Assembly: GCA_964502885.1 (NCBI GenBank)
Contig: CAZCXU010000001.1
Span: 17,994-81,993 of the forward strand
Direction: 5' to 3'
Length of the DNA stretch: 64,000 bases
DNA from: an uncultured Gammaproteobacteria bacterium
GTDB lineage: Bacteria; Patescibacteriota; Microgenomatia; CAZETR01; Amesbacteraceae
In this document: piece after piece, positions 14,544-64,000 of the stretch
How the letters are laid out: each line of letters opens with the position of its first letter
How positions within the stretch are numbered: position 1 is the stretch's first letter
The notes under the pieces: model-generated
What the model was told of the DNA's origin: nothing
The model's input: only the letters and a program-made list of their open reading frames with translations
Databases searched by the model: none
Translations under genes and position numbers: made by a program

Positions 14544-14647
14544 TAATCCAATACCTTTCTATATTGCCACTTCCAAACATGATGACCATACACATCACAC
14601 AAAAATCTGAAATTTTTGTTTCGTGCCCACCAAAGCCATATATGGGA

Positions 14648-43010: not shown

Positions 43011-43583
43011 ATGGCACCAATTAAGATCGGGTTGGATTTCGATGGGGTTGTGGCGTACAACCCACTTAGAGCGACCAGAGCTGTGGTTTCGTTTTTTAAA
43101 AAAAATGTTCTAAAAAAAAGAAAATTAAGTTTTTTTGTACCTAAAAACAAGGTACAAACATGGTTATGGATTATGCTGCATGAAAGCAGCCTGTTCCCTT
43201 CGGCCGGAAAGGGTTTACTTAGACAAATGTCAGGGAATCCGAGGTATGAATTTTATCTGATTACCGGCAGGTATGACTGCCTTGGCTTCCAAGTCAGAAA
43301 ATGGTTGAACAAGTTTGACATGGATGGAGTATTCAAGGAGATCTTTGTAAACGAAGAGAAAGAGCAGCCGCATTTGTTCAAATCGCGGATGATTGAGCAG
43401 CTGAATCTAGATGTATACGTTGAAGACAACTGGGACATAGTCAACTTTCTCAAAGACAAATTCGGGAAGAAAATTTATTGGGTATGCAACTTACTGGATA
43501 GACATGTGCATTACGAAAAAAAATTTCCGAGTTTAAAAGAAGCACTGGAAGACTGCCTGAGCCTAGAACCTAATGAGCCATGA
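43011..43583 (+). CDS. HAD-superfamily hydrolase, 5-prime(3-prime)-deoxyribonucleotidase-like
   Basis: KIGLDFDGVV is the HAD motif I DxDGV. About 190 aa. Start placed at ATG 43011, which has GAAGGA upstream. The ORF-track TTG at 42987 is possible. Confidence 0.5.
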   Translation: MAPIKIGLDFDGVVAYNPLRATRAVVSFFKKNVLKKRKLSFFVPKNKVQTWLWIMLHESSLFPSAGKGLLRQMSGNPRYEFYLITGRYDCLGFQVRKWLNKFDMDGVFKEIFVNEEKEQPHLFKSRMIEQLNLDVYVEDNWDIVNFLKDKFGKKIYWVCNLLDRHVHYEKKFPSLKEALEDCLSLEPNEP

Positions 43584-44692
43584 AGGTGTTGTTTAGTTTG
43601 AGTTATTATTTTCCATATATTTCCGGGCTGAGTGATTATGTCAAAAGATTAGCGGAGAGCATGTGTGGCACAGACATTTTGCCGGAGATAATTTGCACTA
43701 AACATCTTTCTTATCTCGCAGACAGAGAAATAATAAACGGTGTTTCTGTAAACAGATTAAATAAGATCGGAAAAATGGGAAAATGGATAGTACCCCTTTT
43801 GAACCCCTTAAGGATTTTCCGAATATTTCAAAATACCGATAAGGTTGTCATCAATCTTCCCCAACCAGAAGCGATAATTTATAGCATACTTGCAAAACTT
43901 TTGGGTAAAAAAATAATTGCTATTTATCATTGTGATTATGTTTTTGGATCTGATAATTTATCTTCAATATTAAACTTTTGTTTAAGATCAGTTAATTCAA
44001 TATGTCTAAATCTTGCGGATTCGGTGGTTGTTAACTCTTTTGACTATGCTTACAACTCCAGTCTGTTGAAAAATTACTTAAAGAAAGTACAGGAAATATT
44101 CCCCGTGATAGGTTTGGAGTCAGGCAAAAAAATTAATAAACGTTCTTGCTCTCCAAAAATGAGAATTGGATATTTGGGAAGAATTTCTCGTGAAAAAGGC
44201 ATACATATCTTACTGCGGGCAATAAGTTCATCGGGTAATGCTGGCAAATTTTCATTGATAATGGCTGGACCGCGAGATACCATAGGAGAGGAAAGCTACT
44301 TAAGAGAGATTAGCCAGTTAATCACTGATACGAATATTGATGTTAAGAATATGGGCTTCCTCCCCGATCAGGCAAAAAGAGATTTCTTTAACAATATTGA
44401 CGTGTTGGTAATTCCAGCAACAAATTCCAGCGAATCATTTGGAATAGTTCAAGTTGAGGCGATGCAGCACGGGATACCGGTATTGGCTAGTGACTTACCA
44501 GGAGTCAGACAGGTTATAGCTGAGACGGCAGCAGGACTGCTTGTAAAAGCGGGAGACCATTGCGACTGGGCTGAAAAGTTGGAGATGGCTTTAAGCTCAA
44601 TTCAAAAGTATCGCAAGAATACACATAAGGTGTTTAAGAAGTTTAATGGGCTGATAGAATTCAAAAAGTGGAAGACTTTGTTGAATTCTTGA
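43580..44692 (+). CDS. Glycosyltransferase family 4 (GT-B fold)
   Basis: 370 aa. ISREKGIHILLRA...ESFGIVQVEAMQHGIPVLASDLPG is the GT4 EX7E region. Confidence 0.8.
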   Translation: MKVLFSLSYYFPYISGLSDYVKRLAESMCGTDILPEIICTKHLSYLADREIINGVSVNRLNKIGKMGKWIVPLLNPLRIFRIFQNTDKVVINLPQPEAIIYSILAKLLGKKIIAIYHCDYVFGSDNLSSILNFCLRSVNSICLNLADSVVVNSFDYAYNSSLLKNYLKKVQEIFPVIGLESGKKINKRSCSPKMRIGYLGRISREKGIHILLRAISSSGNAGKFSLIMAGPRDTIGEESYLREISQLITDTNIDVKNMGFLPDQAKRDFFNNIDVLVIPATNSSESFGIVQVEAMQHGIPVLASDLPGVRQVIAETAAGLLVKAGDHCDWAEKLEMALSSIQKYRKNTHKVFKKFNGLIEFKKWKTLLNS

Positions 44693-46355
44693 AAATACTG
44701 ACACGGGGATGGTCATACACAGTATATGACTCATCGGCATAGTCATCTACTAAGCTTATGCCAATGGGACAATCTGATATGTTTTCCGCAATTCTGCCAT
44801 AATGAAGAGCCGGCGGTACAATACAGTAATTTATGAATGGAATGGGAAGATTGGGACGGGAAGTAAAAGAACGGACGTGAACAAATGGAGAATTGCCTAA
44901 AAACAGCTTAGAGTAAAAAAGACTTGATTGAGGGTAAAGCTTGGGAACTGTTGAAATGGAGCCATAAAGCCGGTTGCTTGATAGTATGAGATAGTCCAAC
45001 GAGGCTAGTTTTTTATCTAAATTTTGCCACTTTTCGGGACTATCAGGTTCATAAAAAGGCAATTCAATAACTTTAAAACGTCCGTCATTGATTAGCGGCA
45101 GACAGTCGTCCCAATACTCACAACTCAAAGTTGATCCTGATGGGATGTTCTCATAAATCCAGGAGCTGGCTTGAACCCGAGTGTGTGGAACAGAATAAAT
45201 AGACAAAAACATAACTCCAGGCAAAACCATAATTACTGAGGCCGCAACAGATAAACCCAATCGTTTTTTTGTAAACAAGGGGACAAGAAATGGGCCGGCG
45301 ATAATTGCAGCCAGAGGAAGAATTGGATAAAAATAACGCAACGGCCTAGCAAATTGAATATCCTGAAACACAAACAAAATTATGACCATTATTGCTAAGA
45401 TGCGAGGTAAAGAATCTTTACCCACAAGGAAGCGGGCGAGCGAGAAAAGGATAATTACTGAAAGAAACGGACCTACGCCGACAAAGAACAAATTGGGGAG
45501 AGAGTAAGTCAATGGTTTTGTTTCAAACCACTGAACGGACGGGGGAAACATTACTTCTTTTTTTTCTAAAGACTTAAGAGTGTTCAGATTTGCAATTATT
45601 TTCGGATTGGGATGTATTAAATTGATGAAGTAATATGGTGCAGCTAGGCGAAAAGTGATTAAGCTCGATAATCCAAATAGAAATAAATTAATCACCACAG
45701 TTTTCCACCCCACATCCCGCTTTTTAATAAGTAACAAAAGGACGAAAAAAGGGGTGAATGCAATGGCTGAAACTTTGGAGGCAAGTGCGAGGGCGAAAGA
45801 CGCTCCTCCCACTACAGACAACCATCTTTGAGAAGTGTTTTGAGAAAGACGCAGGAGGAGATAGAGTGCAAGCAACAAAAAGGACACCAGAAAAGTATCT
45901 ACTGCAAAAAAGTGCGACAACTGGATGGGAATAACCAATGACGCATATACAAATGCCGACAACATACCACTTTTCCAGCTGGAGAATATAAATCTTGCAA
46001 CAAGAAAGACCAAAATGACGATAACGGTATCCAGTACCGCTGAGATACTTCGACCTACCAGCGGTAGGGAAAAATATGAGTCCATCCCAAGAACTGAAGC
46101 GAGCGATTTTGTCAAAATAACTGGGTACGTACCATAGACATAGAAATCGTGTCCCGCATTGTGAGGATTGCTTTTAGATCCGGACGTGGACAGGTAATCC
46201 GATAAGGAAGATGGAAGATTTATCGACTGACTGACCATGACCAAAAAACGTTCATCTGGATGAAGATGTTGCCCCTGGTCCCAGTTCAATCCCCAAAAAC
46301 GACTAATGACAACGAAAAGCAGCAATAGTGCCCAAGATAACACTTTCATCCTCAT
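44661..46355 (-). CDS. GT-C membrane glycosyltransferase, PMT/ArnT-like (GT39/GT83 family)
   Basis: 564 aa, polytopic. The first extracytoplasmic loop carries HPDERFL, the DE motif of PMT/ArnT enzymes. Translationally coupled to the upstream membrane gene by a 4-nt overlap. Confidence 0.7.
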   Translation of the reverse strand: MRMKVLSWALLLLFVVISRFWGLNWDQGQHLHPDERFLVMVSQSINLPSSLSDYLSTSGSKSNPHNAGHDFYVYGTYPVILTKSLASVLGMDSYFSLPLVGRSISAVLDTVIVILVFLVARFIFSSWKSGMLSAFVYASLVIPIQLSHFFAVDTFLVSFLLLALYLLLRLSQNTSQRWLSVVGGASFALALASKVSAIAFTPFFVLLLLIKKRDVGWKTVVINLFLFGLSSLITFRLAAPYYFINLIHPNPKIIANLNTLKSLEKKEVMFPPSVQWFETKPLTYSLPNLFFVGVGPFLSVIILFSLARFLVGKDSLPRILAIMVIILFVFQDIQFARPLRYFYPILPLAAIIAGPFLVPLFTKKRLGLSVAASVIMVLPGVMFLSIYSVPHTRVQASSWIYENIPSGSTLSCEYWDDCLPLINDGRFKVIELPFYEPDSPEKWQNLDKKLASLDYLILSSNRLYGSISTVPKLYPQSSLFYSKLFLGNSPFVHVRSFTSRPNLPIPFINYCIVPPALHYGRIAENISDCPIGISLVDDYADESYTVYDHPRVSIFKNSTKSSTF

Positions 46356-47965
46356 AGACAGTTGCGGGAGACTGAGTAAATTTTCTGATTCCCTAACGGA
46401 GAGATGTAATCCGCAATAAACTCATCATTCCAAAGGGGCCAATTTACAGGAAGAAAGTCTTCAGGTTGAGTATTCAGCTCGACATAGTCAATTGATCGTG
46501 TGATCAAGCGGTTGCAGGCATCATGTTTGGATGTTGAGGAATAAATTGCTGCTGTATCATTTTCCCTATCAGTCTGATCATATCCGTAAGACCACGTGAA
46601 GTAAGGATAACCGTTATATATTTTCCTTCCGGCCAAAGAAGCCGGATGGTAAAACCAAGTACTGTTTAAGACGACAGAGTCAGCGGCAGTCTTGAGGAGA
46701 AAAAAATTTGCAACAGGATCGCGATTGTAATCGGGGATGTGAAGACGAATATCATTTTTAATCGGAAAATAATCTACAACACCGCCAGAGATCAAGGCGA
46801 CAAATATGGTAGTGGCTAGAATCTTGTATCTTGTGTCCCTATGCAAAAATTTAACAATCAAGTTGGCTGAAAAAACTCCTGCAATAGTTAAGAAGAAGTT
46901 AAGAAGTTTGTGGTTGTTTATAATATCCGGGGACAACTGAAATGTATAAGCCAACAAAAAAATCGTAAGAGCCGGAAGAATAATCAATCTTGAGCATTTG
47001 GGAGCAAAATAAAGACCAACTGGCAAAAGAACAAAATGCAAACCATAGTTGTAAATCGCGTACTTAGCCAACGAGAATATAGTTATCGGCGGTGGTGTCA
47101 AAAAACCAAAGTTAAGGGAGACTGACGAAGACACGTTAACGGTTAATAGATATAGAATTAACCAAGGGATAGCTCCCAACAGGGATACAAACAAAAACAA
47201 ACGCTCCGGACGCAGAATGAGAGCCCACAAATAAAAGACAGCGCCAATTATGAAAGCGGCCTGATTGAGCAGTAATAAACTTCCAAGCAGAAAGCCGGAT
47301 ATCAATTTGCTGCGAGTGTTTGGGATATATAGCAAATAAACAAGGATAATTGTGGTGGCGAATGCCAATCCCAAATGCCTCTGGTTGGTAAAAATGTTAA
47401 GATTCCAAAAGGCAGAAACTTCTCCTCCATCCCAAGGACCAAATGAGACAAATTTTGAACTGTGAATTAACTGATCGAGATATCCAGATAAAGATGAAGC
47501 GCTCTGAATAAATATGGGTAAAGTAAGAGAGGAATTAAAAAAAATAAACACCATAGCCACGATCCCTACAAGAAATGACCGAAAAAGACGAGACGCAAAA
47601 ATTCCCAAACCCAAAGCGAAAGCACATAACCCCAATGCGCTTTGAACATTAAGGGCAATATCAATCCTCAACCCTAGTCGCTCAAGCACCCCAACAAAAA
47701 GATAAAAAAGATAGTGGTACCTGATTGGCTCTCCTGGAAAAAGTGGATACTGGGGCGGCCAGTTGACGGCAGCAGAAAATGAACGAATTAGGGGTATGTG
47801 ACTACCAAAGTCACTGTAAGCTTTTGAGGCAATTAGCAGATCTCCGTCATCCGAATAGGTAAAAGTATGAAACATTAACCAAAAACAAAAAATAAATACT
47901 GCCAGGATGGCAAGTGGCCACAATATATACCTACTGTTATGTGTAAGCTTTTTCAACATCAACAT
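46352..47965 (-). CDS. Polytopic membrane protein, putative GT-C-type glycosyltransferase of unknown family
   Basis: 537 aa. At least 12 TM segments in the N-terminal two-thirds and a soluble C-terminal domain. It is the first gene of a 2-gene operon with the GT39-like gene. Confidence 0.45.
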   Translation of the reverse strand: MLMLKKLTHNSRYILWPLAILAVFIFCFWLMFHTFTYSDDGDLLIASKAYSDFGSHIPLIRSFSAAVNWPPQYPLFPGEPIRYHYLFYLFVGVLERLGLRIDIALNVQSALGLCAFALGLGIFASRLFRSFLVGIVAMVFIFFNSSLTLPIFIQSASSLSGYLDQLIHSSKFVSFGPWDGGEVSAFWNLNIFTNQRHLGLAFATTIILVYLLYIPNTRSKLISGFLLGSLLLLNQAAFIIGAVFYLWALILRPERLFLFVSLLGAIPWLILYLLTVNVSSSVSLNFGFLTPPPITIFSLAKYAIYNYGLHFVLLPVGLYFAPKCSRLIILPALTIFLLAYTFQLSPDIINNHKLLNFFLTIAGVFSANLIVKFLHRDTRYKILATTIFVALISGGVVDYFPIKNDIRLHIPDYNRDPVANFFLLKTAADSVVLNSTWFYHPASLAGRKIYNGYPYFTWSYGYDQTDRENDTAAIYSSTSKHDACNRLITRSIDYVELNTQPEDFLPVNWPLWNDEFIADYISPLGNQKIYSVSRNCL

Positions 47966-48040
47966 ATTCTAACCCGGGAATGGCAACTAATGAACTATTT
48001 ATGGTCATATCAAAATAGTATGACTTGATATCTCACTCAA

Positions 48041-48073
48041 ATATCGGACATTTTGTCTTCTGTTCGCTATAAT
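48041..48073 (+). promoter_or_regulatory. Promoter module upstream of the YYY gene, homologous (about 27 of 32 positions) to the tandem module upstream of the FemAB pair
   Basis: ATCGGACATTTTGTCTTCTGTTCGCTATAATT compared with ATCTGACATTTAGTTTTGTGCTCGCTATAATT. The -35-like GGACA is followed by a 17-nt spacer and TATAAT at 48068-73. TATAAT is 6 nt before GTG 48080. Confidence 0.45.
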
Positions 48074-48079
48074 TAAACG

Positions 48080-50179
48080 GTGGAATACGGCGAATTGTTT
48101 AAGTGGTGGGCAACAGTGTTTATTCTGGGGTGGGCGGCTTGGCCCTTGGCCAGCAAATTGTTTGAGAGCTTTCCAGGACGTGGGTATTTACTGGCCAAGG
48201 GTATGGGTTTAATACTAGTAAGCTTCGCCGTCTGGGTACTCGCCAGCCTGAAAATTGCAGAATTTGGAGTATCTTCAGTGTGGTTTTTTTGTCTTTTAAT
48301 GGCAGTTTTGGCATGGACACGAATGAAAAATCCCCTAACCAAGAATTGGCGTGAGGTCATGTGGTTGGAGATGATTTTTGCGATCGTATTTGTAGGGTGG
48401 TCCTGGATAAAAGCTCACGAACCGAGCATTAATGGGCTGGAAAAATTTATGGATTATGGTTTTGCCATGGCGATTAATAACTCTACACACTTTCCACCTC
48501 CGGATATCTGGTTCTCCGGACAACCGATTAACTACTATTACTTCGGACATCTGATGTTGGCAGTGTTGAGTAAGTTGTCCACCGTGAATTTGGATTATGG
48601 TTTTAACTTGATGCTCGCTACTATCGCCGCCTTTTGTTTTACGATCTCATATTCAATAGGCCATTATCTGGCACGTTCCCTAGATAGGAGCAAACAAACG
48701 CTGTTGGCACTTCTGGTAGCAGTGCTGGTTACTTTTTCGGGAAACCTACATACTATTTATGCATTTACCAAGGGGTACTGGGGTGAGGAAAACCCGCCGG
48801 CGTTTTGGACAATTCTGGCGCCCTTGTCGGATCTAAGTCTATCTTTTGGGAATTACTGGTATCCAAATGCGACGAGGTTTATACCGTTTACAATCCATGA
48901 GTTCCCCAGTTATTCATTTGTGGTATCCGATATCCATGGCCATGTACTATCTATACCAGTAGCACTGCTGCTGATAGCATTGTTTTTAAAAATTTATCAG
49001 CAGAAGGAAAGACGTTCAGGTATAGATATTGCGGTATATGCATTTGGATGTGGAATTGCGTTTATGACAAACGCCCTGGATGGATTGATATACATATGCC
49101 TACTGGGATTTACAATAGCTGTCCAAGAATTTGAAATTTGGAGACAGACAAAAAAAGTTAATTACCCGGCACTGATCAAAATTGGAGTAGTGGGGACGGT
49201 AATGTTTTTTTTAACAACAGGATTATTTCTTGCAAACTTTGAATCGTTTGTCTCTGGGGTGGCAGTCAATTGTCCACCTGCGGCGTGGGTGGGCAAAAAA
49301 GTCGGCCCGCTCATATTTGAAACGGCAGATAAATGTCAAAAGTCCCCCATTTGGATGATGCTTATTCTTTGGGGATTTTTTGTATATAACTTTATCGGCT
49401 TGTACTGGCTTATAGACGAGAAAGAGCAATTCAGAAAGATTGCGATTATAAGTTTTGTGTTTTCAGGCTTGTTAATTCTATTCCCTGAATTTTTTTACTT
49501 CAAAGATATTTATCCACAACACTTCCGCAGTAACACAATGTTCAAACTTGGATATCAAGCTTTTATGCTCATGTCTATCTGGTCCGGATGGGTGATTGTA
49601 AAAATCTATCAGGTGAAACTTCGAACCTGGAAGCACAAGATATTTTTGATCGGAACTGTTCCCCTACTGGTATTGGTGCTTATTTATCCATATTTTTCGG
49701 TTAAATCATACTTTAATTCATTAAATGAAAATAAAGGCTTGTCGGGAACCTCCTGGTTACAACAAAAGTACCCAGAAAACTGGGCAGTCATTAGATGGCT
49801 ACGGCAGACGATAACCGATCCCCACACGGTGGTTTTGGAAGCACAAGGCGATAGTTATCAGGATCCGGTATCGGGAAAACCATATAACCAAATTTCCACC
49901 TTTACAGGACTGCCTACCGTTGCTGGATGGTTTGTACACGAGTGGCTATGGAGGGGCTATGAATCAATCGCTCTCAGGGCCGCTGATGTGAGAACCATTT
50001 ACGATTCCCCCGATATTGAGACTACTAGAACGTTAATAAAAAAATACGAGATCAAATACATAGTTGTTGGGGAAATGGAAAGAGAAAAATATCCGACGCT
50101 AAAACAGGAAAAGTTTGAAAAATTAGGAGGAAGAGTGGTTTATTCAGCGGGCAATACAAGCATCTACAAAATTGACTAA
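48080..50179 (+). CDS. YYY-domain (Chlor_Arch_YYY/DUF2298) polytopic membrane protein, GT-C/oligosaccharyltransferase-like
   Basis: 699 aa. More than 12 TM segments. Signature GQPINYYYFGHLM. Large C-terminal soluble domain. The apparent start is GTG 48080. Confidence 0.65.
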   Translation: MEYGELFKWWATVFILGWAAWPLASKLFESFPGRGYLLAKGMGLILVSFAVWVLASLKIAEFGVSSVWFFCLLMAVLAWTRMKNPLTKNWREVMWLEMIFAIVFVGWSWIKAHEPSINGLEKFMDYGFAMAINNSTHFPPPDIWFSGQPINYYYFGHLMLAVLSKLSTVNLDYGFNLMLATIAAFCFTISYSIGHYLARSLDRSKQTLLALLVAVLVTFSGNLHTIYAFTKGYWGEENPPAFWTILAPLSDLSLSFGNYWYPNATRFIPFTIHEFPSYSFVVSDIHGHVLSIPVALLLIALFLKIYQQKERRSGIDIAVYAFGCGIAFMTNALDGLIYICLLGFTIAVQEFEIWRQTKKVNYPALIKIGVVGTVMFFLTTGLFLANFESFVSGVAVNCPPAAWVGKKVGPLIFETADKCQKSPIWMMLILWGFFVYNFIGLYWLIDEKEQFRKIAIISFVFSGLLILFPEFFYFKDIYPQHFRSNTMFKLGYQAFMLMSIWSGWVIVKIYQVKLRTWKHKIFLIGTVPLLVLVLIYPYFSVKSYFNSLNENKGLSGTSWLQQKYPENWAVIRWLRQTITDPHTVVLEAQGDSYQDPVSGKPYNQISTFTGLPTVAGWFVHEWLWRGYESIALRAADVRTIYDSPDIETTRTLIKKYEIKYIVVGEMEREKYPTLKQEKFEKLGGRVVYSAGNTSIYKID

Positions 50180-51231
50180 GGTTTCCCCAAACTGGTGCTC
50201 ACGAAGTTAAAAATTTCAGTGAATTTTGAGTCTTTTGGAATGAGCACCCACTGATTCTGATATTTTGCCGAAAGAGGAGGATTGATCAAAAGCCCAGAAT
50301 CAATTAGCGAAATCTGACGAACGGGAGCACTTCGAAGTTTCATGGCCGCCTGAAAAAGTGTGGAATAGTAAGGGCTCTCAATGTCAGAGGAAACACTATC
50401 GGCAGCAAGAGCCACTAAACTTTTGTATATGGAGGTATTTTTGAGATTATTAAGCGACAGCAGTTTGTCGGCAAAACCCCTAAGAACTTTGGTCTGACGC
50501 TTTGAACGGGCAAAGTCGGTCCCCTCTTCCACGTCCTCTGAATGCCGGGAGCGAACAAACTTAAGAGCCATCTCTCCATCCAGATGGGCGTCCCCAGCCT
50601 CAAAGGTGATACTTTCATAACGACAGGAGTATTTAATATCACCCCCACAAGTGTCGTTTTCTCTACCAGGGATAGGATACAGATTGTCAGTAAAAGTCTT
50701 ATCTATGGTTATATCTACGCCGCCAATAATATCTATGGCTTTAGAAAACGTGGAGAAGTCTATGTTGAGAGCGAAATGAACCGGTTGATTTATTACCTCA
50801 GTGACTGCAGCTTTTGCCATAAGGAGTCCTCCAGCAGTTGCTGCCTTTTCATATCCAAAGAAATAGGCATGATTTATCTTTGCTTTAAGTGAGTTTACCC
50901 AGAGGTCGCGAGGAATTGGAATAAGAGCTATATCTGGGGAATTTTGATTTACAGAAATAAAAATCATAGTGTCCGAGAGATTTGATCCGTCATGGCCTTC
51001 GCCACCAGAACCAAGAATCAAGAAATTAGTACGACCACCCGACTGAGGAAGTGGGCGACCGGTTACCATTTCCCAAGTCAAATGTCGACCTGAGGTACGC
51101 TCAAAAAGAAAGTAACCACCGATTAGAACCGAGGCGGTAAGTCCTAATATGAGGATCCTTGCCAGCCAAACATGGGACAGCAATTGGCGTTTGAACCGAT
51201 TGTAAAAAGAACCAATTCTGCTAATCTGCAT
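50176..51231 (-). CDS. LytR-CpsA-Psr (LCP) family glycopolymer-to-peptidoglycan ligase
   Basis: Start at ATG 51231 (MQISRIG...); the ORF-track TTG at 51273 is less likely. N-terminal TM segment. LCP core TNFLILGSGGEGHDGSNLSDTMIFISV...IPRDLWV. Confidence 0.8.
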   Translation of the reverse strand: MQISRIGSFYNRFKRQLLSHVWLARILILGLTASVLIGGYFLFERTSGRHLTWEMVTGRPLPQSGGRTNFLILGSGGEGHDGSNLSDTMIFISVNQNSPDIALIPIPRDLWVNSLKAKINHAYFFGYEKAATAGGLLMAKAAVTEVINQPVHFALNIDFSTFSKAIDIIGGVDITIDKTFTDNLYPIPGRENDTCGGDIKYSCRYESITFEAGDAHLDGEMALKFVRSRHSEDVEEGTDFARSKRQTKVLRGFADKLLSLNNLKNTSIYKSLVALAADSVSSDIESPYYSTLFQAAMKLRSAPVRQISLIDSGLLINPPLSAKYQNQWVLIPKDSKFTEIFNFVSTSLGKP

Positions 51232-51250
51232 ATATGTATTTTTAAGGAGT

Positions 51251-53113
51251 ATGGAGATTTTAACCGAACTCAATCCAGTTCAACAAGAAGCGGTAAGTTT
51301 TGATACCAATACCCCGCTGGCGATTTTGGCCGGAGCGGGCAGCGGAAAAACTAGAATCCTTACACATCGAGTGGCATATTTTGTTAAGGAACTGGGGATA
51401 GACAGACAAAACATATTGCTACTGACTTTTACAAACAAAGCTGCAGGAGAAATGTTGTACCGGGTTTCGAAACTGACCGGGGATGCTGCCAGATCGGGCA
51501 TAGCGGGGGGGACTTTTCATAGCTTTGGCGTTAAAGTGCTGAGAGAGTTTGGTGGAGTTGCGGGAATTCGGGCAAATTTTTCTATATTCGATGAGTCTGA
51601 CCAGTTGGATACTATTAAAAGAGCGATGGAGTCTGGTGGAGTTGACCCTAAAACAGTCAAGCCATCAAGTGTGGCTGGGGCTATTTCGGAAGCAAAGAAT
51701 AACCTTATCTCACCCAATGACTATGCTTCTTTTGCGAGAGGGAGTTTTTCACAAGGAGTGGCAAAAGTATATCTTGTTTACGAACAAATGCTTCGCAGAT
51801 ACAATGCATTTGATTTTGATGATTTACTTGTCCGATCCGTACAACTCATCAAAACCTATCCACAAGTGAAACAGGCATTGCAGGAAAGATACACACATAT
51901 ATTGATTGATGAGTACCAAGATACGAATAAGGCCCAATATGAACTTACAAAGATGCTCGCCGAACCGGGGCACCTAACCGTAGTGGGAGATGCGTCACAA
52001 GCCATTTATTCATGGAGGGGAGCAGATTACAAAAATTTGCTGTATCTCAAACAGGATTTTCCGAACTTAAAAGTTATCCGACTGGAGCAAAATTATCGCT
52101 CTACACAAAACCTACTTGACGCGGCAAATGCCGTCATAGCGAAAAATACCTCTCATCCCATACTGGAATTGTGGACGGAAAATCCGACTGGGGAAAAAAT
52201 TAAAATAACTGAATACCCTTCTGAATACGAAGAAGCACGAGCCATAGCCGACGAAATCAATGTCCTTTCCCAGATGAAAAAGACTTCACTGCAGGATGTG
52301 GCGGTTTTGTATAGAACAAATGCGCAATCTCGGGTATTAGAGGAGGCACTGCTCCAAGCAGGCATTCCATATCACCTGGTGGGGGGTGTGAGATTTTATG
52401 AGAGAAAAGAAATAAAAGACGTATTGGCTTATGCAAAAATATTGGTAAACCCAAGCGATGAAGTATCCAGAAAACGAGCTGGGAAACTGGGCAAAGCTCG
52501 GTTGGCACGGCTAGAAGAGAAGAAAATTGATGTCACGCGATTTACCACTCTGGAAGTTTTATCTCAAATATTTAAGTTGACCGGGTATCTGGAAACATAT
52601 GACAGCAACAGCGAGGAGGACGCGGTGAGACTTGAAAATATTGACGAGCTTAAGAGCGTAGCTTTGCTGTATCCCAAGATCGATGAGTTCCTGCAGCAAA
52701 TTACTTTGACAGAAAAGGAGGCTAAGAAAAAAATGGGCAGATCAAGGAATGAAATGGGGGCTGTCACCATGATGACTTTACATGCTTCTAAGGGGCTTGA
52801 ATTTGATGTGGTTTTTCTGGTGGGAATGGAGGAAGGATTGTTTCCTCACAGCAGAGCATTAAACGACCCGGAACAGATGGAGGAAGAGAGAAGATTGTGT
52901 TATGTAGGGATGACCAGAACACGCAAAAAACTTTATATCACCTATGCCAGAAACAGGCTTATTTTTGGACAAAGATCGCCGGGGATCGTGTCCAGATTTG
53001 TGGCAGATATTCCAGAAAAAGTAATTGATAATTTCCAGGTACTTCTTACGGCAAAAAAAGTTGATCAAAGCTGGGGATTTGATGAAAACGGAGAGTGGCG
53101 GTGGCAACCTTGA
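51251..53113 (+). CDS. UvrD/PcrA-family DNA helicase, compact
   Basis: 620 aa. LNPVQQEAVS...LAGAGSGKTRIL (motif I), DEYQDTN (II), and the remaining helicase motifs, ending in the 2B/C-terminal region. Confidence 0.9.
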   Translation: MEILTELNPVQQEAVSFDTNTPLAILAGAGSGKTRILTHRVAYFVKELGIDRQNILLLTFTNKAAGEMLYRVSKLTGDAARSGIAGGTFHSFGVKVLREFGGVAGIRANFSIFDESDQLDTIKRAMESGGVDPKTVKPSSVAGAISEAKNNLISPNDYASFARGSFSQGVAKVYLVYEQMLRRYNAFDFDDLLVRSVQLIKTYPQVKQALQERYTHILIDEYQDTNKAQYELTKMLAEPGHLTVVGDASQAIYSWRGADYKNLLYLKQDFPNLKVIRLEQNYRSTQNLLDAANAVIAKNTSHPILELWTENPTGEKIKITEYPSEYEEARAIADEINVLSQMKKTSLQDVAVLYRTNAQSRVLEEALLQAGIPYHLVGGVRFYERKEIKDVLAYAKILVNPSDEVSRKRAGKLGKARLARLEEKKIDVTRFTTLEVLSQIFKLTGYLETYDSNSEEDAVRLENIDELKSVALLYPKIDEFLQQITLTEKEAKKKMGRSRNEMGAVTMMTLHASKGLEFDVVFLVGMEEGLFPHSRALNDPEQMEEERRLCYVGMTRTRKKLYITYARNRLIFGQRSPGIVSRFVADIPEKVIDNFQVLLTAKKVDQSWGFDENGEWRWQP

Positions 53114-53136
53114 GTTGTGTGGTCCCGACAAAACTT

Positions 53137-53260
53137 AATGACTATATATCTTGCACAAAATCTGACATTTAGTTTTGTGCTCGCTATAAAGTCATGACGA
53201 GACAGAAAATGACTATATATCTTGCACAAAATCTGACATTTAGTTTTGTGCTCGCTATAA
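53137..53260 (+). repeat. Perfect 53-bp direct repeat of 2 copies with a 71-bp period. Each copy contains an 8-bp inverted repeat and a promoter-like module.
   Basis: Copy 1 at 53137-53189 and copy 2 at 53208-53260 are both AATGACTATATATCTTGCACAAAATCTGACATTTAGTTTTGTGCTCGCTATAA. Inside each, GCACAAAA-N12-TTTTGTGC. Confidence 0.85.
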
Positions 53261-53261
53261 T
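53233..53261 (+). promoter_or_regulatory. Promoter for the FemAB-like pair (cTGACA-N17-TATAAT), 6 nt upstream of ATG 53268. A duplicate lies 71 bp upstream with TATAAA.
   Basis: CTGACA at 53233-38, a 17-nt spacer, and TATAAT at 53256-61. The -35 lies in the loop of the GCACAAAA/TTTTGTGC inverted repeat, which suggests an operator. The upstream copy is at 53162-53190. Confidence 0.5.
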
Positions 53262-53267
53262 TCAGGA

Positions 53268-54248
53268 ATGGAGAGCTGGGTTGAGGCAGATTTTGACCAT
53301 AAGAATGAGTGGAATGCACTAGCAGGACATCCGTTACAGTCCTGGGAATGGGGAGAGTTTAGAGGAAAAAGACAAAAAGTTAGTCGGCTGGCTCTATCAG
53401 ATGGAGGTAACTACAAAAGAGTTATCAATGTGATCTGGACCCGGCTGGGAAGGCTGCCATGGCAAATCGGATATGCACCCATGATAAAGCTGCCAAATAA
53501 ACAAGATCTATCTGGTCTTATCGCTGCCGCAAAAGCCAACCGAGCAATATTTGTGAGAATCGAACCTCTTCCGGGCCAGAATGGACTGGAGCTACAAGAA
53601 TTTGAACAGATAAAGGGAGAGCTAAAAACCGGCAGATCATTGTTTAAAAAGAAAACTCGGGTTGTAAACCTAACTTTAAATGAAGAGGATCTACTTAAAC
53701 AAATGCATCCTAAAGGCAGATACAATATTCGGGTAGGATTAAAGCACGGGGTGAAAGTCAGTCAGGAAACAGATTTGGACAGTTTCAATAAGTATTTGCA
53801 GTTAATGTTTTCCGGAACTGCAAAACGGCAAAAAATTTTTATGCATAATTATACGTACCATCAGCAGATGTGGGATAGTTTGAGCGGATCAGGGATAGCC
53901 AAACTATTTCTTGCAAGAGTCGGCAAGGACGCGGTGGCGGCGGCAATTCTATATTGCTTTAAAGAAACCGCTTATTATGCTTATGGGGCGTCTGAGCTTG
54001 AACATAAAGAGGCAATGGCACCTACCGGGTTGTTGTGGGAAATGATTAGGTGGGCCAAGAGCAAAGGATTCAAATATTTTGATATGTGGGGAAGCGAAAG
54101 CGGAAAAGGTTTCTCCAGATTTAAGGAGCAATTTGGAGGCAATGAGATAGAGTTGCCTGGAAGTTTTGATTTACCAACCAGCCCGCTATATCGATTATTT
54201 AGAATTGCAGAAGAACTCAGGTGGAAAATAATTCACAACTGGAAGTAG
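53268..54248 (+). CDS. FemAB-family peptidoglycan interpeptide-bridge aminoacyltransferase (FemX-like)
   Basis: 326 aa. N-terminal Q-S-W-E-W-G-E-F pattern. LFLARVGKDAVAAAILYCFKETAYYAYGAS...GLLWEMIRWAKSKGFKYFDMWG is the FemAB GNAT-like acceptor region. Confidence 0.7.
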   Translation: MESWVEADFDHKNEWNALAGHPLQSWEWGEFRGKRQKVSRLALSDGGNYKRVINVIWTRLGRLPWQIGYAPMIKLPNKQDLSGLIAAAKANRAIFVRIEPLPGQNGLELQEFEQIKGELKTGRSLFKKKTRVVNLTLNEEDLLKQMHPKGRYNIRVGLKHGVKVSQETDLDSFNKYLQLMFSGTAKRQKIFMHNYTYHQQMWDSLSGSGIAKLFLARVGKDAVAAAILYCFKETAYYAYGASELEHKEAMAPTGLLWEMIRWAKSKGFKYFDMWGSESGKGFSRFKEQFGGNEIELPGSFDLPTSPLYRLFRIAEELRWKIIHNWK

Positions 54249-55069
54249 TCGAAGACTTAAGACAAACAAAAGAATACGGAGAATATATGGAGTCTTTGGG
54301 GTGGAAAGTCGCTGAATTAGGCAGGTGTGGCAAAATATTTCTTCGGCCATTGGGGCCCTTAAAACTCGCTAAGTTTCAGAGGTTTACAAAAATTCCGGAG
54401 ATTAACCTTTTGGATGAGCTAATGAATAAAGAGCGGGTGGTCATGTGCAAGTTAGAGCCAAGTGAAAAAATACAAGAAACCGAGTTGAACAGTTTTACTG
54501 CGGCTGGATTTAAAAAAGACAAATGGCCACTGCTTGCCAGCAAGACTTTAAGAGTTGACCTACGACCCGCGACTGAGGTTATTTTTTCAAAATTTAAAAA
54601 GGATGCCAGGTACTGCATACGTAAGGTGCAGGAGGATAGGTACAAGATAAGTGACGATGACACTGAGCTGTTTTATTTTATATGGAAAAAAAGTTCGAAA
54701 CGAAAAAATCTATGGATCCCAAGTAAAAACGAATATGATAATTTTGTCAGAGTGTGGGGGAAAAAAGTTCTTTGTATAACGATAGGCGAAATGGCGGGGG
54801 TGGTAATTATTGTCCACAAACAGACGGCTTTTTATTACTATGCGGGGGCAACAAAAGAAGGAACGGACAAGAACCTCCCCTATTTAGCGGTGTGGTCTGG
54901 AATGCAAGAAGCCAAGAAACGAGGCGCAAAGACGTGGGATTTTGAGGGCATCTTTGATACCCGATGGCCGAACAAGAGATGGCTGGGTTTTTCTCATTTC
55001 AAGAAAAGTTTCGGGGGGCAGGATGTGGAATATCCCGGTTCATTTGAAAAATGGCGATGGCCATTTTAG
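54221..55069 (+). CDS. Second, shorter FemAB-family paralog
   Basis: 282 aa. YGEYMESLGWKVAELG N-terminal pattern. VVIIVHKQTAFYYYAGATKE...LAVWSGMQEAKKRGAKTWDFEGI. Overlaps the upstream paralog by 28 nt. An alternative start is ATG 54287. Confidence 0.6.
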   Translation: MENNSQLEVVEDLRQTKEYGEYMESLGWKVAELGRCGKIFLRPLGPLKLAKFQRFTKIPEINLLDELMNKERVVMCKLEPSEKIQETELNSFTAAGFKKDKWPLLASKTLRVDLRPATEVIFSKFKKDARYCIRKVQEDRYKISDDDTELFYFIWKKSSKRKNLWIPSKNEYDNFVRVWGKKVLCITIGEMAGVVIIVHKQTAFYYYAGATKEGTDKNLPYLAVWSGMQEAKKRGAKTWDFEGIFDTRWPNKRWLGFSHFKKSFGGQDVEYPGSFEKWRWPF

Positions 55070-55070
55070 G

Positions 55071-57974
55071 CTATGGTTCAGAAATTGAGAGGTCGCACAG
55101 ATAGTGATAGTCGCATCCTGACTGACATATTTGAGACTGTGAGCATGTGAAATCTGATCTAGATATCTCTTCTGCCTTTGCCAAGATTTCAGCTTTGGCT
55201 CTTTCGAGTTGATCAGCTGTCAGAACAACACTAACTTTTTCCTGGGTATCGAGATAGTAAAGTGAAAGCTTTATTTTATCGATCGACTTTCCATACGGAT
55301 GGCAGGTAAGACCGGTGGCCGCCAGTGCGTAAAATGATAACTGCAAATTCGATTGTGCCTCCTTTGGGGTTAGGTGTTTTGAGCTGGTTTTATAATCAAT
55401 AATCTCCAGGGAACCATCTGGGAGTATATCGACCCGGTCAATTTTTCCACCTACAGTTATCATGCCCAGCGGCAACTTAAAATTGTCTTCAAGTCTCAGA
55501 ACCTGGGAGATAGGAGGGGTGTTTTCCAAGAATTCAGTTAAATACTGCTTGCCCTTGGCAAAATATAGATTAGCATGGGCCGCATTCTCATAACCGACTT
55601 TTATCCAGTTTTTGGCGTAGAGCTCAAAGATGTTTGGATTTAGGGAAGACTTTAGATCAGTGAAATATTCATTCAATGTCTTATGTATGGTATTGCCAAA
55701 GCTTGAGGCAGCAGAAGGAGGAGAGGAAATTTTTAATATATATTTAGCTTTATAGTGGAGAGGGCAAGTATCAAATGTCTGGATCTGCGAATAACTTAAG
55801 TAGGCCACCTTGTGCAGTGGTGTTGTCGAATGTATTTTGGACACTTCTTTGGGCGCAAAATGCCAATCAAGAAGCGGAAGTTGAGTTGACGGCTGAGCCG
55901 CCGACAAAGCTGTTTCAAGCGAGCCGTACATCTCAGAAATAAATTGGGAAATTTTCCTAGTTCTTTTACCCAGTCCATATATATCAGAACTGGTGGTAAA
56001 AAGTCGTTCTTTGGCGCGGGTGATAGCGACATAAAAAAGCCGACGTTCTTCGTATAGATGCTGATCAACAGTCGGCAGGCTTTCCTTAATAAGATTCTCG
56101 GGAATAGGAAACGAATCTTTCCTGTCTTGTGACGGGAAACGTCCGGAAATCAGATTTACCACAAACACAACCGGAAACTCCAACCCCTTGGAAGCGTGAA
56201 CTGTTAGAATATTTACTACATCCGCAGTCCCCCATTCTTCATGCGAAGAGGCAGTAGTATCTGATATTAACTGTGAATTTTCTACCCATACCAAGGTATC
56301 GGCAACCGTAACAATGCCCAACTCTTCAAGGTTTTTCAGCTGGTTGAAAAAGTTGAATATATTTATTGCTTTGTCAGCATCGGAACTGGTACCAGCGTTT
56401 AATAATGATTCCAATCTACCAAAATGCCTAAGATATTCGTAAAGAAGCTGTCCGGAAGACTGGGAAAGTGATTCGCGGGTCTGTTTATCTATGAGCGCCA
56501 ATAGTGCCGAAATACTCTTTTCCGATGCCGGTGAGAGCTTGTCTGCCTGGCCATCCAGAGATCGGCAATATTCAATAAGAGACTGCTGCTGAGCAGCAGC
56601 CAAATTTGTGAGAGCATACAGTTCCTTTGGCTGAAGTCCCACTTCAGATGAGGAGAGAAGACGAAAGAATGCTTGGTTATCATGCGGGCTTTGAATTATC
56701 TGTAGGTATGCGATCAGATCTTTTACTTCTGGTGTCTCCAACAACCGAGATTGGCCAAGAAACTGAAACGGTATGTTGAAACGTTTGAATGCGTCGGTAA
56801 AAAGGTGGGCGTGTGAATTCGCCCTGACTAGCACAGCAAAATCCTTATATGAATAATGCCCAGGTTCATCTTCCATCAGCTCCTTAATCTTTTGGACCAC
56901 TGCAAATGCTTCGTCTGCGCCCCGGGAAAAGTGCATATGTTGCGGCGCGATAGTACGCCCACGATTGACAGCGATCAGGTGTTTGTCGATATTGGCCTGA
57001 GATTCGAGACGGTAGGGATTATTGAACTGGATCAGACGATAAGCCGCGTCGAGGATGGGCTGAGAAGAACGGTAATTTTTTGTAAGAACAATTACCTTTG
57101 CGGCAGGATACTGTGACTGGAAACTTAGGATGTTTGTTAGAGATGCTCCCCGCCAGCGGTAAATAGCCTGATCATCATCAGCCACGACAGTAAGATTTGG
57201 CGAGGAGCCGGCTAACAAACCAACTAGATGATTTTGAGCGAAATTTGTGTCCTGGAATTCATCAACCAAGATGTATTTATATTTATGTTGATACTTTTTA
57301 AGAATATTTGGGCGTTTTTGGAATAAAACCAAACTGTAATAAATTAGGTCGGAAAAGGTAAACAGGCCCTTTGACTGCTTAAGTTTTTGAAAGAAATCAT
57401 AAGATCTGGATAGTTCCTGATATCTTAGCTTTTCCAGCTCAACATCCTGACCCACGGGAGATATGGAGAACTGATTGTTAACCCATTGGATATATTCGCC
57501 AGGAGAAATATTCTCATCCTGAAGCCGATCGATGTGGGAAAGCAGGTCGGTAACAAATTTGTATGGATTACCCAGGGGACGGAAATAATCAAGCTCCAAC
57601 TCAAAAAAATGTTTGGTGAGCAAAGCCGCTGATTCAGAAGTGGTCATAAGAGTGTAGTTTGGATCCAGACCAATCTCGACCAACTCAGACCGAAGAATGC
57701 GATCACAAAAAGAGTGGAATGTAGTGGCCTGAGGAAGAGATGAGGTGAGCGGGAAAGCTGTCTCAAGTCGAGATTGCATTTCAGCGGCGGCCTTATCGGT
57801 GAATGTTAAGGCGAGAATCTCCTCTGAGCGAGCAAGCCCCGACTCAACCAAAAACTTTATTCTCTCGATAATTACCGTGGTTTTGCCGGTACCCGCCCCG
57901 GCGACAATCAGCAGCGGACCAGAGCCAAAACTGACCGCTTCCAACTGACGTTCATTTAATTGTGATTGAGGCAT
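55071..57974 (-). CDS. UvrD-family helicase with a fused C-terminal PD-(D/E)XK, Cas4/AddB-like nuclease carrying four Cys
   Basis: 967 aa. The N-terminus LNERQLEAVSFGSGPLLIVAGAGTGKTT and DEFQDTN identify the helicase. The C-terminus carries C-x-C...C-x5-C (CPLHYKAKY...CSQSQICQSGCDYHYLC), typical of Fe-S RecB-family nucleases. Confidence 0.8.
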   Translation of the reverse strand: MPQSQLNERQLEAVSFGSGPLLIVAGAGTGKTTVIIERIKFLVESGLARSEEILALTFTDKAAAEMQSRLETAFPLTSSLPQATTFHSFCDRILRSELVEIGLDPNYTLMTTSESAALLTKHFFELELDYFRPLGNPYKFVTDLLSHIDRLQDENISPGEYIQWVNNQFSISPVGQDVELEKLRYQELSRSYDFFQKLKQSKGLFTFSDLIYYSLVLFQKRPNILKKYQHKYKYILVDEFQDTNFAQNHLVGLLAGSSPNLTVVADDDQAIYRWRGASLTNILSFQSQYPAAKVIVLTKNYRSSQPILDAAYRLIQFNNPYRLESQANIDKHLIAVNRGRTIAPQHMHFSRGADEAFAVVQKIKELMEDEPGHYSYKDFAVLVRANSHAHLFTDAFKRFNIPFQFLGQSRLLETPEVKDLIAYLQIIQSPHDNQAFFRLLSSSEVGLQPKELYALTNLAAAQQQSLIEYCRSLDGQADKLSPASEKSISALLALIDKQTRESLSQSSGQLLYEYLRHFGRLESLLNAGTSSDADKAINIFNFFNQLKNLEELGIVTVADTLVWVENSQLISDTTASSHEEWGTADVVNILTVHASKGLEFPVVFVVNLISGRFPSQDRKDSFPIPENLIKESLPTVDQHLYEERRLFYVAITRAKERLFTTSSDIYGLGKRTRKISQFISEMYGSLETALSAAQPSTQLPLLDWHFAPKEVSKIHSTTPLHKVAYLSYSQIQTFDTCPLHYKAKYILKISSPPSAASSFGNTIHKTLNEYFTDLKSSLNPNIFELYAKNWIKVGYENAAHANLYFAKGKQYLTEFLENTPPISQVLRLEDNFKLPLGMITVGGKIDRVDILPDGSLEIIDYKTSSKHLTPKEAQSNLQLSFYALAATGLTCHPYGKSIDKIKLSLYYLDTQEKVSVVLTADQLERAKAEILAKAEEISRSDFTCSQSQICQSGCDYHYLCDLSISEP

Positions 57975-57998
57975 ATTTGATGATGATATTATTCCAGC

Positions 57999-58583
57999 AT
58001 GATTATATGCGGATTAGACGAAGTAGGAAGAGGGCCACTGGCGGGGCCTCTAGTGGCAGCTGGTGTAATTTTAGGAAGAAAAGTCGTCGGTCTCAATGAT
58101 AGTAAAAAACTTAACCCCAACCAGAGAAGAATACTGTACGAAGAAATTATTAACACATGTAAAGTTTACGCCGTTGAAGTTTTTTCCGTAGAAGAAATCG
58201 ACCGGGTAGGAATAGGGCAAGCTAACAAGACGATATTTGAAATGCTTATTAAAAAAATAGCGGCTGACAAATATATAGTCGACGGAAACTTAAGAATAAC
58301 GGGAGACACAAGAAACCGTCCAAATATTGAATCCGTCATCAAGGCAGATGCAAAGTTTCCGGAGGTAATGGCGGCTTCGATAGTAGCTAAAGTCACCCGA
58401 GACGGGATAATGCGCAATCTACATAAAGAGTATCCAGAATACGGATGGGAAACAAATGTAGGCTACGGAACAAAAAAACATATCAGCGCAATAATTTCAT
58501 TCGGAACAACCCCCCACCACCGAATCAAATTTGTTCAGACTGCGGTGACAAACCGCCTGACGACTTTGACGAGTCATCTTTAA
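57999..58583 (+). CDS. rnhB: Ribonuclease HII
   Basis: 194 aa. MIICGLDEVGRGPLAGPLVAAGVIL carries the DEVGRG catalytic motif. Confidence 0.9.
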   Translation: MIICGLDEVGRGPLAGPLVAAGVILGRKVVGLNDSKKLNPNQRRILYEEIINTCKVYAVEVFSVEEIDRVGIGQANKTIFEMLIKKIAADKYIVDGNLRITGDTRNRPNIESVIKADAKFPEVMAASIVAKVTRDGIMRNLHKEYPEYGWETNVGYGTKKHISAIISFGTTPHHRIKFVQTAVTNRLTTLTSHL

Positions 58584-63873: not shown

Positions 63874-64000
63874 AAGAACAATAATCGCAGGCACAGGATC
63901 GCTGTAGAATTTTTTGGGTATTGCCCGCAAATAGACAGATGTGACATTTTGTTTTGGTATCGGCTATAGTTATTTTTAATATGCTGTTGAATTTTAAACA

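Follow-up and report, generated by a model that had tools for sequence, protein, structure and literature searches.

Which kind of sequence is the perfect tandem repeat that lies in front of a femAB gene pair, and does it mark a regulatory module shared with another gene of the neighbourhood, as the preliminary description of this DNA proposed? We addressed these questions in the window, i.e. the whole stretch of 64,000 nucleotides that was analysed, which comes from a Microgenomates/Amesbacteria-like CPR bacterium, and in other genomes. We favour, with a probability of about 0.6, the view that the repeat is a head-to-tail pair of Correia-like miniature inverted-repeat elements with an outward-facing promoter. 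The family is best classed among the promoter-carrying miniature inverted-repeat elements, a known class of which it would be a new, CPR-borne representative.

The femAB repeat and its locus

The repeat is confirmed as real and non-random. Its two copies (Table 1), detected as family D2 of the repeat search at 100% identity, match at 53/53 positions with a start-to-start period of 71 nt, exactly as first described. Each contains GCACAAAA (53153-60 and 53224-31) followed 12 nt further on by TTTTGTGC, with CTGACA in the loop (53162-67 and 53233-38) at 17 nt from TATAAA (53185-90) or TATAAT (53256-61); this arrangement, too, had been read correctly. Tandem Repeats Finder gave no report at the locus, as expected for a repeat of 1.75 copies in which 18 nt do not match.

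The repeat occupies the interval between uvrD, whose stop codon is at 53111-53113, 2 nt before the start of the distal unit, and two FemAB-family genes. The gene identities guessed in the preliminary description, namely this pair and a DUF2298 (Chlor_Arch_YYY) membrane protein, proved right. The closest FemAB homologue among 5.8 billion proteins is 54% identical. Homologues align with FemAB from its very first residue, and the YYY/DUF2298 protein matches TIGR03662 with 460 bits from residue 2 onwards, so that the start codons at 53268 and 48080 are well supported.

Five syntenic relatives (L001 and L046-L049, with about 45-55% protein identity) share the gene order PMT_2, hypothetical, DUF2298, LytR, UvrD, FemAB x2, AddA-like and RNase HII. 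The femAB and YYY genes are both part of this conserved cell-envelope cluster. The gap between uvrD and femAB is 154 nt in the window versus 8-28 nt in the relatives, and an nhmmer search of about 80 kb of these genomes, at about 50% protein identity, yielded no match to the element, which is absent from both their femAB and their DUF2298 loci. Comparison with related genomes, suggested in the preliminary description as a test of whether the duplication is strain-specific, thus indicates that it is lineage-specific. At this distance, the relatives serve as analogues of empty sites and not as true ones.

Table 1. Positions of the features of the window, and inverted arms of related loci in other genomes
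Feature	Position	Strand	Description
Perfect repeat, copy 1	53137-53189	+	53 nt; E1 centre and right arm plus one base
Perfect repeat, copy 2	53208-53260	+	53 nt; E2 centre and right arm plus one base
E1, distal unit	53116-53188	+	left arm TGTGTGGTCCCGACAAAACTTAATGAC, centre TATATATCTTGCACAAAATCT, right arm GACATTTAGTTTTGTGCTCGCTATA; from the family alignment
E2, proximal unit	53185-53259	+	left arm TATAAAGTCATGACGAGACAGAAAATGAC; TATA at 53185-53188 common to the end of E1
YYY/DUF2298 copy	47996-48071	+	decayed palindrome; -35 CGGACA 48045-50, -10 TATAAT 48068-73, GTG 48080; nhmmer E=9e-14
Fourth copy, more diverged	63903-63968	+	left boundary uncertain; nhmmer E=2e-8
Fifth copy, degenerate	about 14560-14642	+	intergenic between dnaJ (-) and fusA (+); nhmmer E=0.001-0.005
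Predicted promoter P2	53233-53261	+	-35 CTGACA, 17-nt spacer, -10 TATAAT; ATG 53268 after 6 nt
Predicted crippled promoter P1	53162-53190	+	-35 CTGACA, 17-nt spacer, TATAAA
femAB-family gene pair	53268-55069	+	53268-54248 (326 aa) and 54221-55069 (282 aa); Pfam PF02388/PF13480, homologues
L005 inverted arms			27 nt, 85% complementarity
L007 inverted arms			25 nt, 84% complementarity
L013 inverted arms			56 nt, 80% complementarity
L026 inverted arms			23 nt, 83% complementarity
L028 inverted arms			23 nt, 78% complementarity

Predicted promoters and leaderless starts

The repeat had been described as two stacked promoters. They are unequal, as the -10 box of the distal one lacks its last T, a base that is highly conserved and important in sigma-70 promoters. 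In P2, the TATA of TATAAT belongs to the end of the element and the AT to the flanking DNA, whereas in P1 the first base of E2 stands where the final T of the box would be. A sigma-70-like scan of 12 kb (46-58 kb) placed P2 (11/12) and the DUF2298 copy (10/12) at the top, both with a 17-nt spacer (CTGACA-17-TATAAT and CGGACA-17-TATAAT); P1 is missing from the list because the scan demands a T at position 6. The earlier claim that TATAAT lies 6-7 nt before the start codon in all copies holds for the proximal copy (ATG 53268) and for the DUF2298 copy (GTG 48080), both with 6 nt, but not for the distal one, whose TATAAA hexamer is 77 nt from the ATG.

The prediction of leaderless transcripts from this geometry is sound, since the start codons are backed by homologues and a TATAAT-like box is found at the matching place in the relatives, 6-8 nt before the start of FemAB in 4/5 and of DUF2298 in 5/5. 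Throughout the window, a -10-like hexamer stands exactly 6 nt before 7/59 gene starts versus 23/952 internal start codons (Fisher p=0.001). Few Shine-Dalgarno-like motifs occur across the window, and none precedes the starts at 53268 or 48080. Because relatives devoid of the element share the spacing, and given the enrichment over the whole window, we conclude that leaderless geometry is an ancestral property of the lineage and not special to the module.

Several other readings of the sequence were discarded. The simple motif CGCTATAAT was rejected as a generic promoter feature of the window, where its 6 matches compare with 10.5 expected. A transcript from P1 would have a 71-nt leader with no usable Shine-Dalgarno sequence, and this leader folds no better than shuffled sequences (z=-0.9); a terminator or attenuator was rejected on that score and for the absence of a U-tract after the hairpin. 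As for a divergent reverse promoter (ATGTCA-N16-TATAGT on the minus strand), we regard it as a by-product of the symmetry of the element. In the window it would yield only antisense RNA into uvrD, and the divergent gene at locus L009 of another genome has a consensus promoter of its own. A small peptide starting MTIYLAQ... from ATGACT, in both the window and L009, was set aside as non-coding, the frame diverging after a 1-nt indel. Finally, we know of no LexA/SOS-box or ECF-sigma motif that matches the repeat.

Element copies in the window and in other genomes

In total, the window harbours five copies of the element at four loci, namely E1 and E2 at femAB and single copies at DUF2298, at 63.9 kb and between dnaJ and fusA. 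The module before the YYY gene, previously reported as about 84% identical over 32 nt, is indeed related to the femAB copies, with 83% identity over 35 nt (48040-48074), but the figure falls to 44/56 (79%) for the whole module, and the similarity extends over about 75 nt (about 47996-48071). The stretch at 48040-48074 precedes the next divergently transcribed gene upstream. The fourth copy was detected by a looser search; it has GTGACA (63941-46), an 18-nt spacer and TATAGT (63965-70) ahead of an ATG at 63981, and the gene downstream extends past the end of the window. The fifth emerged from a profile search, and an insertion that splits its right arm leaves no usable -35/-10 spacing. At 4/4 loci of the window, the right arm is directed at the start of a co-oriented gene, at a distance of 6-62 nt. 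A 26-nt degenerate pattern, built from the very copies that it retrieves, has 3 matches in the window versus 0 in 100 shuffles, and the 13-mer GACATTTTGTTTT with at most 1 mismatch occurs in the window in element copies only.

Alignment of full units delimits an element that spans from TATA-TAG(T/C)CAT to ...GCTCGC-TATA, about 75 nt with the terminal TATAs included. Conservation ends at ...CGC-TATA in every copy, and the next two bases vary (AT, AA, GT, GC or GA). The left arm, TATATAGTCAT..CAAAAC..AAAATGAC, is an imperfect reverse complement of the right arm GTGACATTTTGTTTTGTGCTCGCTATA, and left arms are the least conserved part of the element between genomes. TA or TATA is present at both ends of the copies, where it is inseparable from the arm tips as a target-site duplication. 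At E1, the inverted arms of the window (53138-53160 and 53173-53195; ATGACTATATATCTTGCACAAAA and TTTTGTGCTCGCTATAAAGTCAT) are 23 nt long and 83% complementary. The DUF2298 copy has 0 inverted pairs and a fold z of -0.3, and its inverted-repeat character is gone.

The 18 nt that separate the perfect copies had looked like a spacer, yet with the TATAA in front of them they make up the left arm of E2. Compared directly with the 23 nt that precede copy 1, they show no significant similarity (p of about 0.3), and their homology emerged only on comparison with the left arms of the family. In its left arm, E2 shares 14-15 of 21-22 positions with L009, L026 and L028, and its centre and right arm agree at 50/56 positions with L009 and at 47/56 with L026 and L028. 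The left arm of E1 matches the family consensus at 12/21 positions (binomial p=0.009), although its left tip is TGTGTGG and not TATATAG. Given the homology of the 18 nt to family left arms, there are two bona fide units at femAB.

E1 and E2 are thus identical at 53/53 positions over centre and right arm but at only 11/21 over the left arm, a pattern that would be expected neither from two fresh insertions nor from a clean duplication. A recent origin of the 53 identical bases, as suggested in the preliminary description, is plausible, to be set against the 11/21 agreement of the left arms. Gene conversion, or a faster decay of left arms, may account for the mismatch.

Could the duplication be an artefact, either because one unit was wrongly assembled twice or because units varying in number were collapsed? 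The genome is metagenome-assembled with no second assembly of the species, and 53 is just under a k of 55. However, the assembly path needs the junctions ...CTATAA-AGTCATG... and ...CAGAA-AATGACT... in the reads, the 18 nt between the copies are homologous to a left arm of the family, and tandem arm copies recur at L008, L016 and L024. We consider such an artefact very improbable.

Outside the window, a core-pattern scan of 185,579 species-representative genomes (596 Gb), to which the source genome of the window does not belong, retrieved 22 loci, among which CPR genomes are strongly over-represented. Separately, among the loci compared in detail, 22 contain the exact 13-mer GACATTTTGTTTT, which forms inverted pairs in 8 of them, and near-exact pairs are found at L007 and L013. 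Locus L009 in Ca. Microgenomatus gives a BLAST match of 91% over 57 nt (E=3e-15) and is identical at 50/56 positions (89%) across the module. The gene behind it resembles the YebC family by eye, and its flanking genes are unrelated to femAB. A metagenome scan with the upstream box and the -35 added the L026 and L028/L038 copies, 84% identical and located before other genes. The femAB copy is therefore nearer to foreign copies (84-91%) than to its DUF2298 paralogue in the same genome (79%). The same arms, 25-27 nt long, also bound short repeats of Roizmanbacteria and of a Brocadiaceae MAG (Bin_5). In the latter, they enclose a 106-nt repeat present in at least three full copies, with unrelated flanks directly outside TATAG...CTATA. 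No match to the element was obtained in plasmid and phage collections, and a scan of viral contigs gave one match, which is unrelated. Rfam had no match in the window, and the related loci gave tRNAs only.

Several of these features are those of a MITE. Terminal inverted repeats are present, with arms of 23-56 nt that are 78-85% complementary, except in the DUF2298 copy. Several copies with unrelated flanks and sharp boundaries were found, at four loci of the window and in the Brocadiaceae trio. Neither a transposase nor a related autonomous element was found in the window.

An alternative that needs no mobile element is a local tandem duplication, in which replication slippage doubled a native femAB promoter, while the likeness to the DUF2298 promoter and to promoters elsewhere reflects convergence on the optimal sigma-70 sequence. 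The 29-nt core is indeed near an ideal promoter. Unrelated phyla fit the pattern, Firmicutes tRNA promoters included, and the 22 matches in 596 Gb are near chance expectation. The spacer also obeys the general four-region rule of promoters, T-tract/G/T-tract/G-rich (PMC12641261). Convergence may explain part of the similarity of the core across phyla. Several observations speak against this alternative. The likeness reaches about 45 nt upstream of the core, over positions with no known polymerase contact, and amounts to 89-91% with L009; CPR genomes are over-represented among the matches; the free (N) positions of the pattern are non-random; and cores are found as inverted pairs. At the locus itself, a clean slippage event would have copied all 71 nt, yet 18 nt differ, and the short gaps of the relatives leave no space for such a promoter. 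Slippage of a native promoter is thus unlikely.

The preliminary description had proposed a promoter combined with an operator, at which a dimeric repressor would control femAB and the YYY/GT-C gene together, with two stacked regulated promoters resulting from the duplication. Positions not contacted by sigma, among them the dyad GCACAAAA/TTTTGTGC and the ATGACTATATATCT box, are 84-91% conserved between genomes, which argues for some constraint other than that imposed by RNA polymerase. The fold of the femAB module is also better than that of shuffled sequences (z=-3.1), and both genes belong to the cell-envelope cluster. For a dimeric-repressor operator, one would look for the same dyad with a fixed spacing at all promoters, and this is not what we found. 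The dyad is missing from the DUF2298 copy, one arm is altered in L028 (TTTTGCGC) with no compensating change, and the arms are 12-13 nt apart in the window versus about 22 nt in the L008 type. Relatives with the same cluster show no such motif at either promoter, and the element has no linked candidate regulator. The proposed palindrome is accounted for as the inner part of the inverted repeats of the element.

The genes behind the copies do not form a coherent group either. They comprise FemAB, YYY, an unknown gene and the YebC-like gene identified by eye, with a further copy in the dnaJ/EF-G intergenic region; another downstream gene has a weak, sub-threshold match to a cytidine-deaminase domain. 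As these genes are functionally unrelated, the idea of a femAB/GT-C regulon is not supported, and we regard joint control by a repressor as improbable. A conserved factor might conceivably bind the element nevertheless, in view of the high conservation between genomes of positions free of polymerase contact, and the genes that bear it may well be expressed at similar levels.

Proposed history of the locus and relation to known systems

How might a pair of elements have come to drive femAB? Under the element reading, the units would measure about 67-69 nt plus a terminal TA or TATA and belong to a family dispersed in the host genome and present in other CPR bacteria. The outward-facing right arm (GTGACATTTTGTTTTGTGCTCGC-TATA) carries a near-consensus -35 (TGACA) and, 17 nt away, the first four bases of a -10. 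Where the flanking DNA contributes AT, TATAAT would be complete, and RNA polymerase would be expected to initiate about 7 nt further on, at the first base of the start codon, yielding a leaderless mRNA.

The ancestral uvrD-femAB junction was presumably compact, with the stop codon, about 2 nt, TATAAT, 6 nt and the ATG. E1 would have inserted into the TATA of this ancestral -10, thereby regenerating TATAAT on its right side. E2 would later have come to lie in that TATA, as a further insertion or as the duplicate of a unit, which would give the 71-nt period (69+2 or 67+4). With E2 lodged in the TATA at the end of E1, the -10 of E1 would have become TATAAA. The sum of this reconstruction, 2 + 4 + 67 + 2 + 69 + 2 + 2 + 6 = 154 nt, equals the observed spacer. 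Removal of both units and of one copy of each TA leaves gtTATAATtcaggaATG, i.e. TGA-gt-TATAAT-tcagga-ATG, on the premise that the TGTG at the tip of E1 was formerly TATA. The junction so obtained is compact like those of the relatives (8-28 nt) and has the same 6-nt geometry.

It follows from this scheme that P2 would be the working, leaderless promoter of femAB and P1 a damaged and weakened relic. The promoter cassette common to femAB and DUF2298 would then reflect the acquisition of one kind of element by both genes, and not a common operator. The repeat, its membership of the family, the inverted arms, the sharp boundaries, the absence of the element from the relatives and the conserved spacing between -10 and start are observed, whereas promoter activity, mobility, target choice and the order of events are all inferred from sequence. 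It is tempting to go further and to envisage a cross-phylum Correia-like family that lands preferentially in the TATA of -10 boxes, brings its own -35 and rebuilds a working promoter at each insertion, but we hold this broader proposal to be rather doubtful. If it were true, such elements would be 'promoter-neutral' or promoter-replacing; they would directly drive leaderless genes of CPR bacteria and could rewire envelope genes such as femAB.

CPR promoters and mobile elements are almost uncharacterised. If the element reading is true, it provides Microgenomates with a portable promoter cassette of about 55-75 nt, and the Correia-type design, a MITE with an outward promoter, would exist far beyond Neisseria. 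It also calls for caution in regulon prediction, as upstream motifs common to several genes of a small genome may be copies of a repeat.

The locus can be compared with several known systems. As for tandem P1/P2 promoters with operator palindromes, the resemblance lies in the promoter-like units 71 nt apart and in the dyad overlapping the -35. It ends with the damaged distal -10 and with a dyad that belongs to a repeat element and that the other member of the supposed regulon lacks. Promoters of leaderless mRNAs, with TANNNT 6-8 nt before the start, are known from Actinobacteria, Deinococcus-Thermus and archaea. The window has a comparable arrangement, with the -10 located 6 nt before ATG or GTG and no Shine-Dalgarno sequence. 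Its lineage, Microgenomates/CPR, is a different one; our literature search found no paper tying leaderless initiation or transcription starts to CPR.

REP/REPIN sequences mobilised by a RayT-like HUH tyrosine transposase are likewise short, palindromic, intergenic and often arranged as inverted doublets. The family could be of this type, its promoter likeness being secondary. In favour of this type, each unit is a composite palindrome containing two hairpins, inverted doublets are frequent, and an ORF lies 170 nt from the element pair of L008, its only family matches being RayT (E=0.0016) and Y1_Tnp (E=0.004). The two matches are sub-threshold, with 17.7 bits for PF01797 against a cut-off of 23 and 18.3 for NF047646 against 80, and they concern a single locus; no homologue was detected in the window or at the other loci examined. 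REPs are usually located 3' of genes. In contrast, the elements described here are 5' of genes in a fixed orientation, aimed at their starts, and their terminal TATA and TA-type junctions suit elements that target TA. With no supported RayT gene, we find a REP/REPIN origin quite unlikely.

The closest parallel is with the Correia elements. To our knowledge, these elements (CREE, or nemis) have been reported from Neisseria only, and the hosts of the window family are CPR bacteria and members of other phyla. Both are short and non-coding, with inverted arms of 25-27 nt that start with TATAG and end with CTATA, and the target is of the TA type in CREE and presumably also here. Their size classes correspond, 69-73 and about 105 bp for CREE versus about 70-75 and 106 nt here. 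Correia elements are mostly found 5' of genes, and in their 'Black promoter' the -35 and part of the -10 lie inside the element, while the insertion site completes the box (PMC2649163; PMC10969869). The window family similarly combines a predicted outward sigma-70 promoter, whose -35 is internal and whose partial -10 is completed by the flank, with a position mostly 5' of genes and with tandem-repeat variants. Nevertheless, the arms are only weakly alike, sharing the TATAGCG tip and an AACAAAA block (19-21 of 30-31 columns in gapped alignments, p 0.002-0.07), and they do not match the 26-bp Correia repeat TATAG[CT]GGATTAACAAAAATCAGGAC within 3 mismatches (PMC2649163). As this similarity is weak, we consider the family an analogue of the Correia elements and not a member. 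The IHF site and RNase III features belong to CREE and have no counterpart in evidence here, and the promoter of the window element abuts the start codon, which makes it a predicted leaderless one.

Finally, putative mobile promoters have been defined as sequences of at least 50 nt with at least 80% identity that precede non-homologous genes within or between genomes (Matus-Garcia et al. 2012, PMC3488235). The femAB copy and L009, with 50/56 identical positions (89%) and 91% identity over 57 nt in front of unrelated genes, fall within this definition, whereas the femAB/DUF2298 pair of the window, at 44/56 (79%), lies just below the 80% cut-off. What sets the window family apart from such promoters is that its carrier structure, the inverted arms, can be named.

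The uvrD-femAB junction within a conserved gene block

The element-bearing promoter region lies in a block of cell-envelope and DNA-repair genes that is also found in the five syntenic relatives devoid of the element (L001, L046-L049), and its synteny is kept across the six genomes at only ~50% protein identity. UvrD of the window ends in ...WRWQP, and the protein extends 2-4 acidic residues further in all five relatives, with the termini PDD, PDE, PEDD, PDDDV and PDDN. The femAB promoter of these relatives has its -35 region within the 3' end of uvrD, and in L049 the uvrD stop codon is located inside the TATAAT of that promoter.

Feature coordinates in the window and in loci (L-numbers) from other genomes or metagenomes
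Feature	Location	Description
Conserved gene block	window 43580-58583	GT4, PMT_2 (GT-C), hypothetical membrane protein, DUF2298/YYY, LytR-CpsA-Psr, UvrD, FemAB x2, AddA-like helicase-nuclease, RNase HII, RmuC
UvrD C-terminal end	window 53095-53113
TAnnnT box 6 nt before start, examples	window 645(-), 3852(-), 34970, 40120, 42993, 47959(-), 57999, 61637
Three-arm elements	L024 5896-6013 (also L035, L042); L008 4328-4552; L016 1046-1178
Repeat-rich ORF	L008 377-4315	1312 aa
Short ORF after element	L008 4552-4722
ORF with sub-threshold transposase matches	L008 4725-5795
Brocadiaceae 106-nt repeat	L005 3369-3472	same unit in L015, L020
Brocadiaceae repeat, partial copies	L011, L021

Translation initiation and strand composition

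Shine-Dalgarno-like motifs precede only ~9 of the 59 genes called in the window, and a TAnnnT box lies 6 nt upstream of the start of many operon-first genes. Together, these sequence features suggest that leaderless or non-Shine-Dalgarno initiation is widespread in this Microgenomates genome. GC skew and AT skew are both positive in nearly all 2-kb bins of the window (1-64000), whatever the orientation of the genes, and the cumulative GC skew climbs monotonically to 3.1. A disparity in strand composition has reportedly been observed in another Microgenomates genome (PMC7143001).

Related and unrelated sequences in other genomes

Seven metagenome contigs (L029, L031, L036, L037 and L044, and also L040 and L045) share a conserved upstream sequence unlike the element, CTATATATCT(G/A)ACAATCGTTGACATTTGGTCTTGCCAAGCCATATTTA, which is probably a single orthologous promoter region from an unrelated organism.

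A subfamily of the element has three arms with ACATTTTGTTT inside ~150 nt; two of them are in tandem and the third is inverted, and the ATG of a small ORF immediately adjoins the inverted arm (GCTATATAAcATG / GCTATATGCAT). In L008, an inverted pair of element arms is 170 nt from an ORF whose sole family matches, both sub-threshold, are to an IS200-like Y1 transposase and a REP-associated tyrosine transposase; an SH3_3 domain is present at its C-terminal end. The same locus harbours an ORF composed almost entirely of SPSASL-type repeats; the C-terminal 50 residues of this ORF recur in the short ORF that follows the element.

Brocadiaceae Bin_5 (JBDIVL01) contains a 106-nt repeat with 27-nt inverted arms at both ends (TATAGTAATGTTAAAACAAAATGTCAC ... 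GTGACATTTTGTTTTGAGATCGCTATA), and the flanks are unrelated among at least three full copies. Despite the different host phylum, its arm is nearly the same as that of the elements of the candidate phyla radiation.
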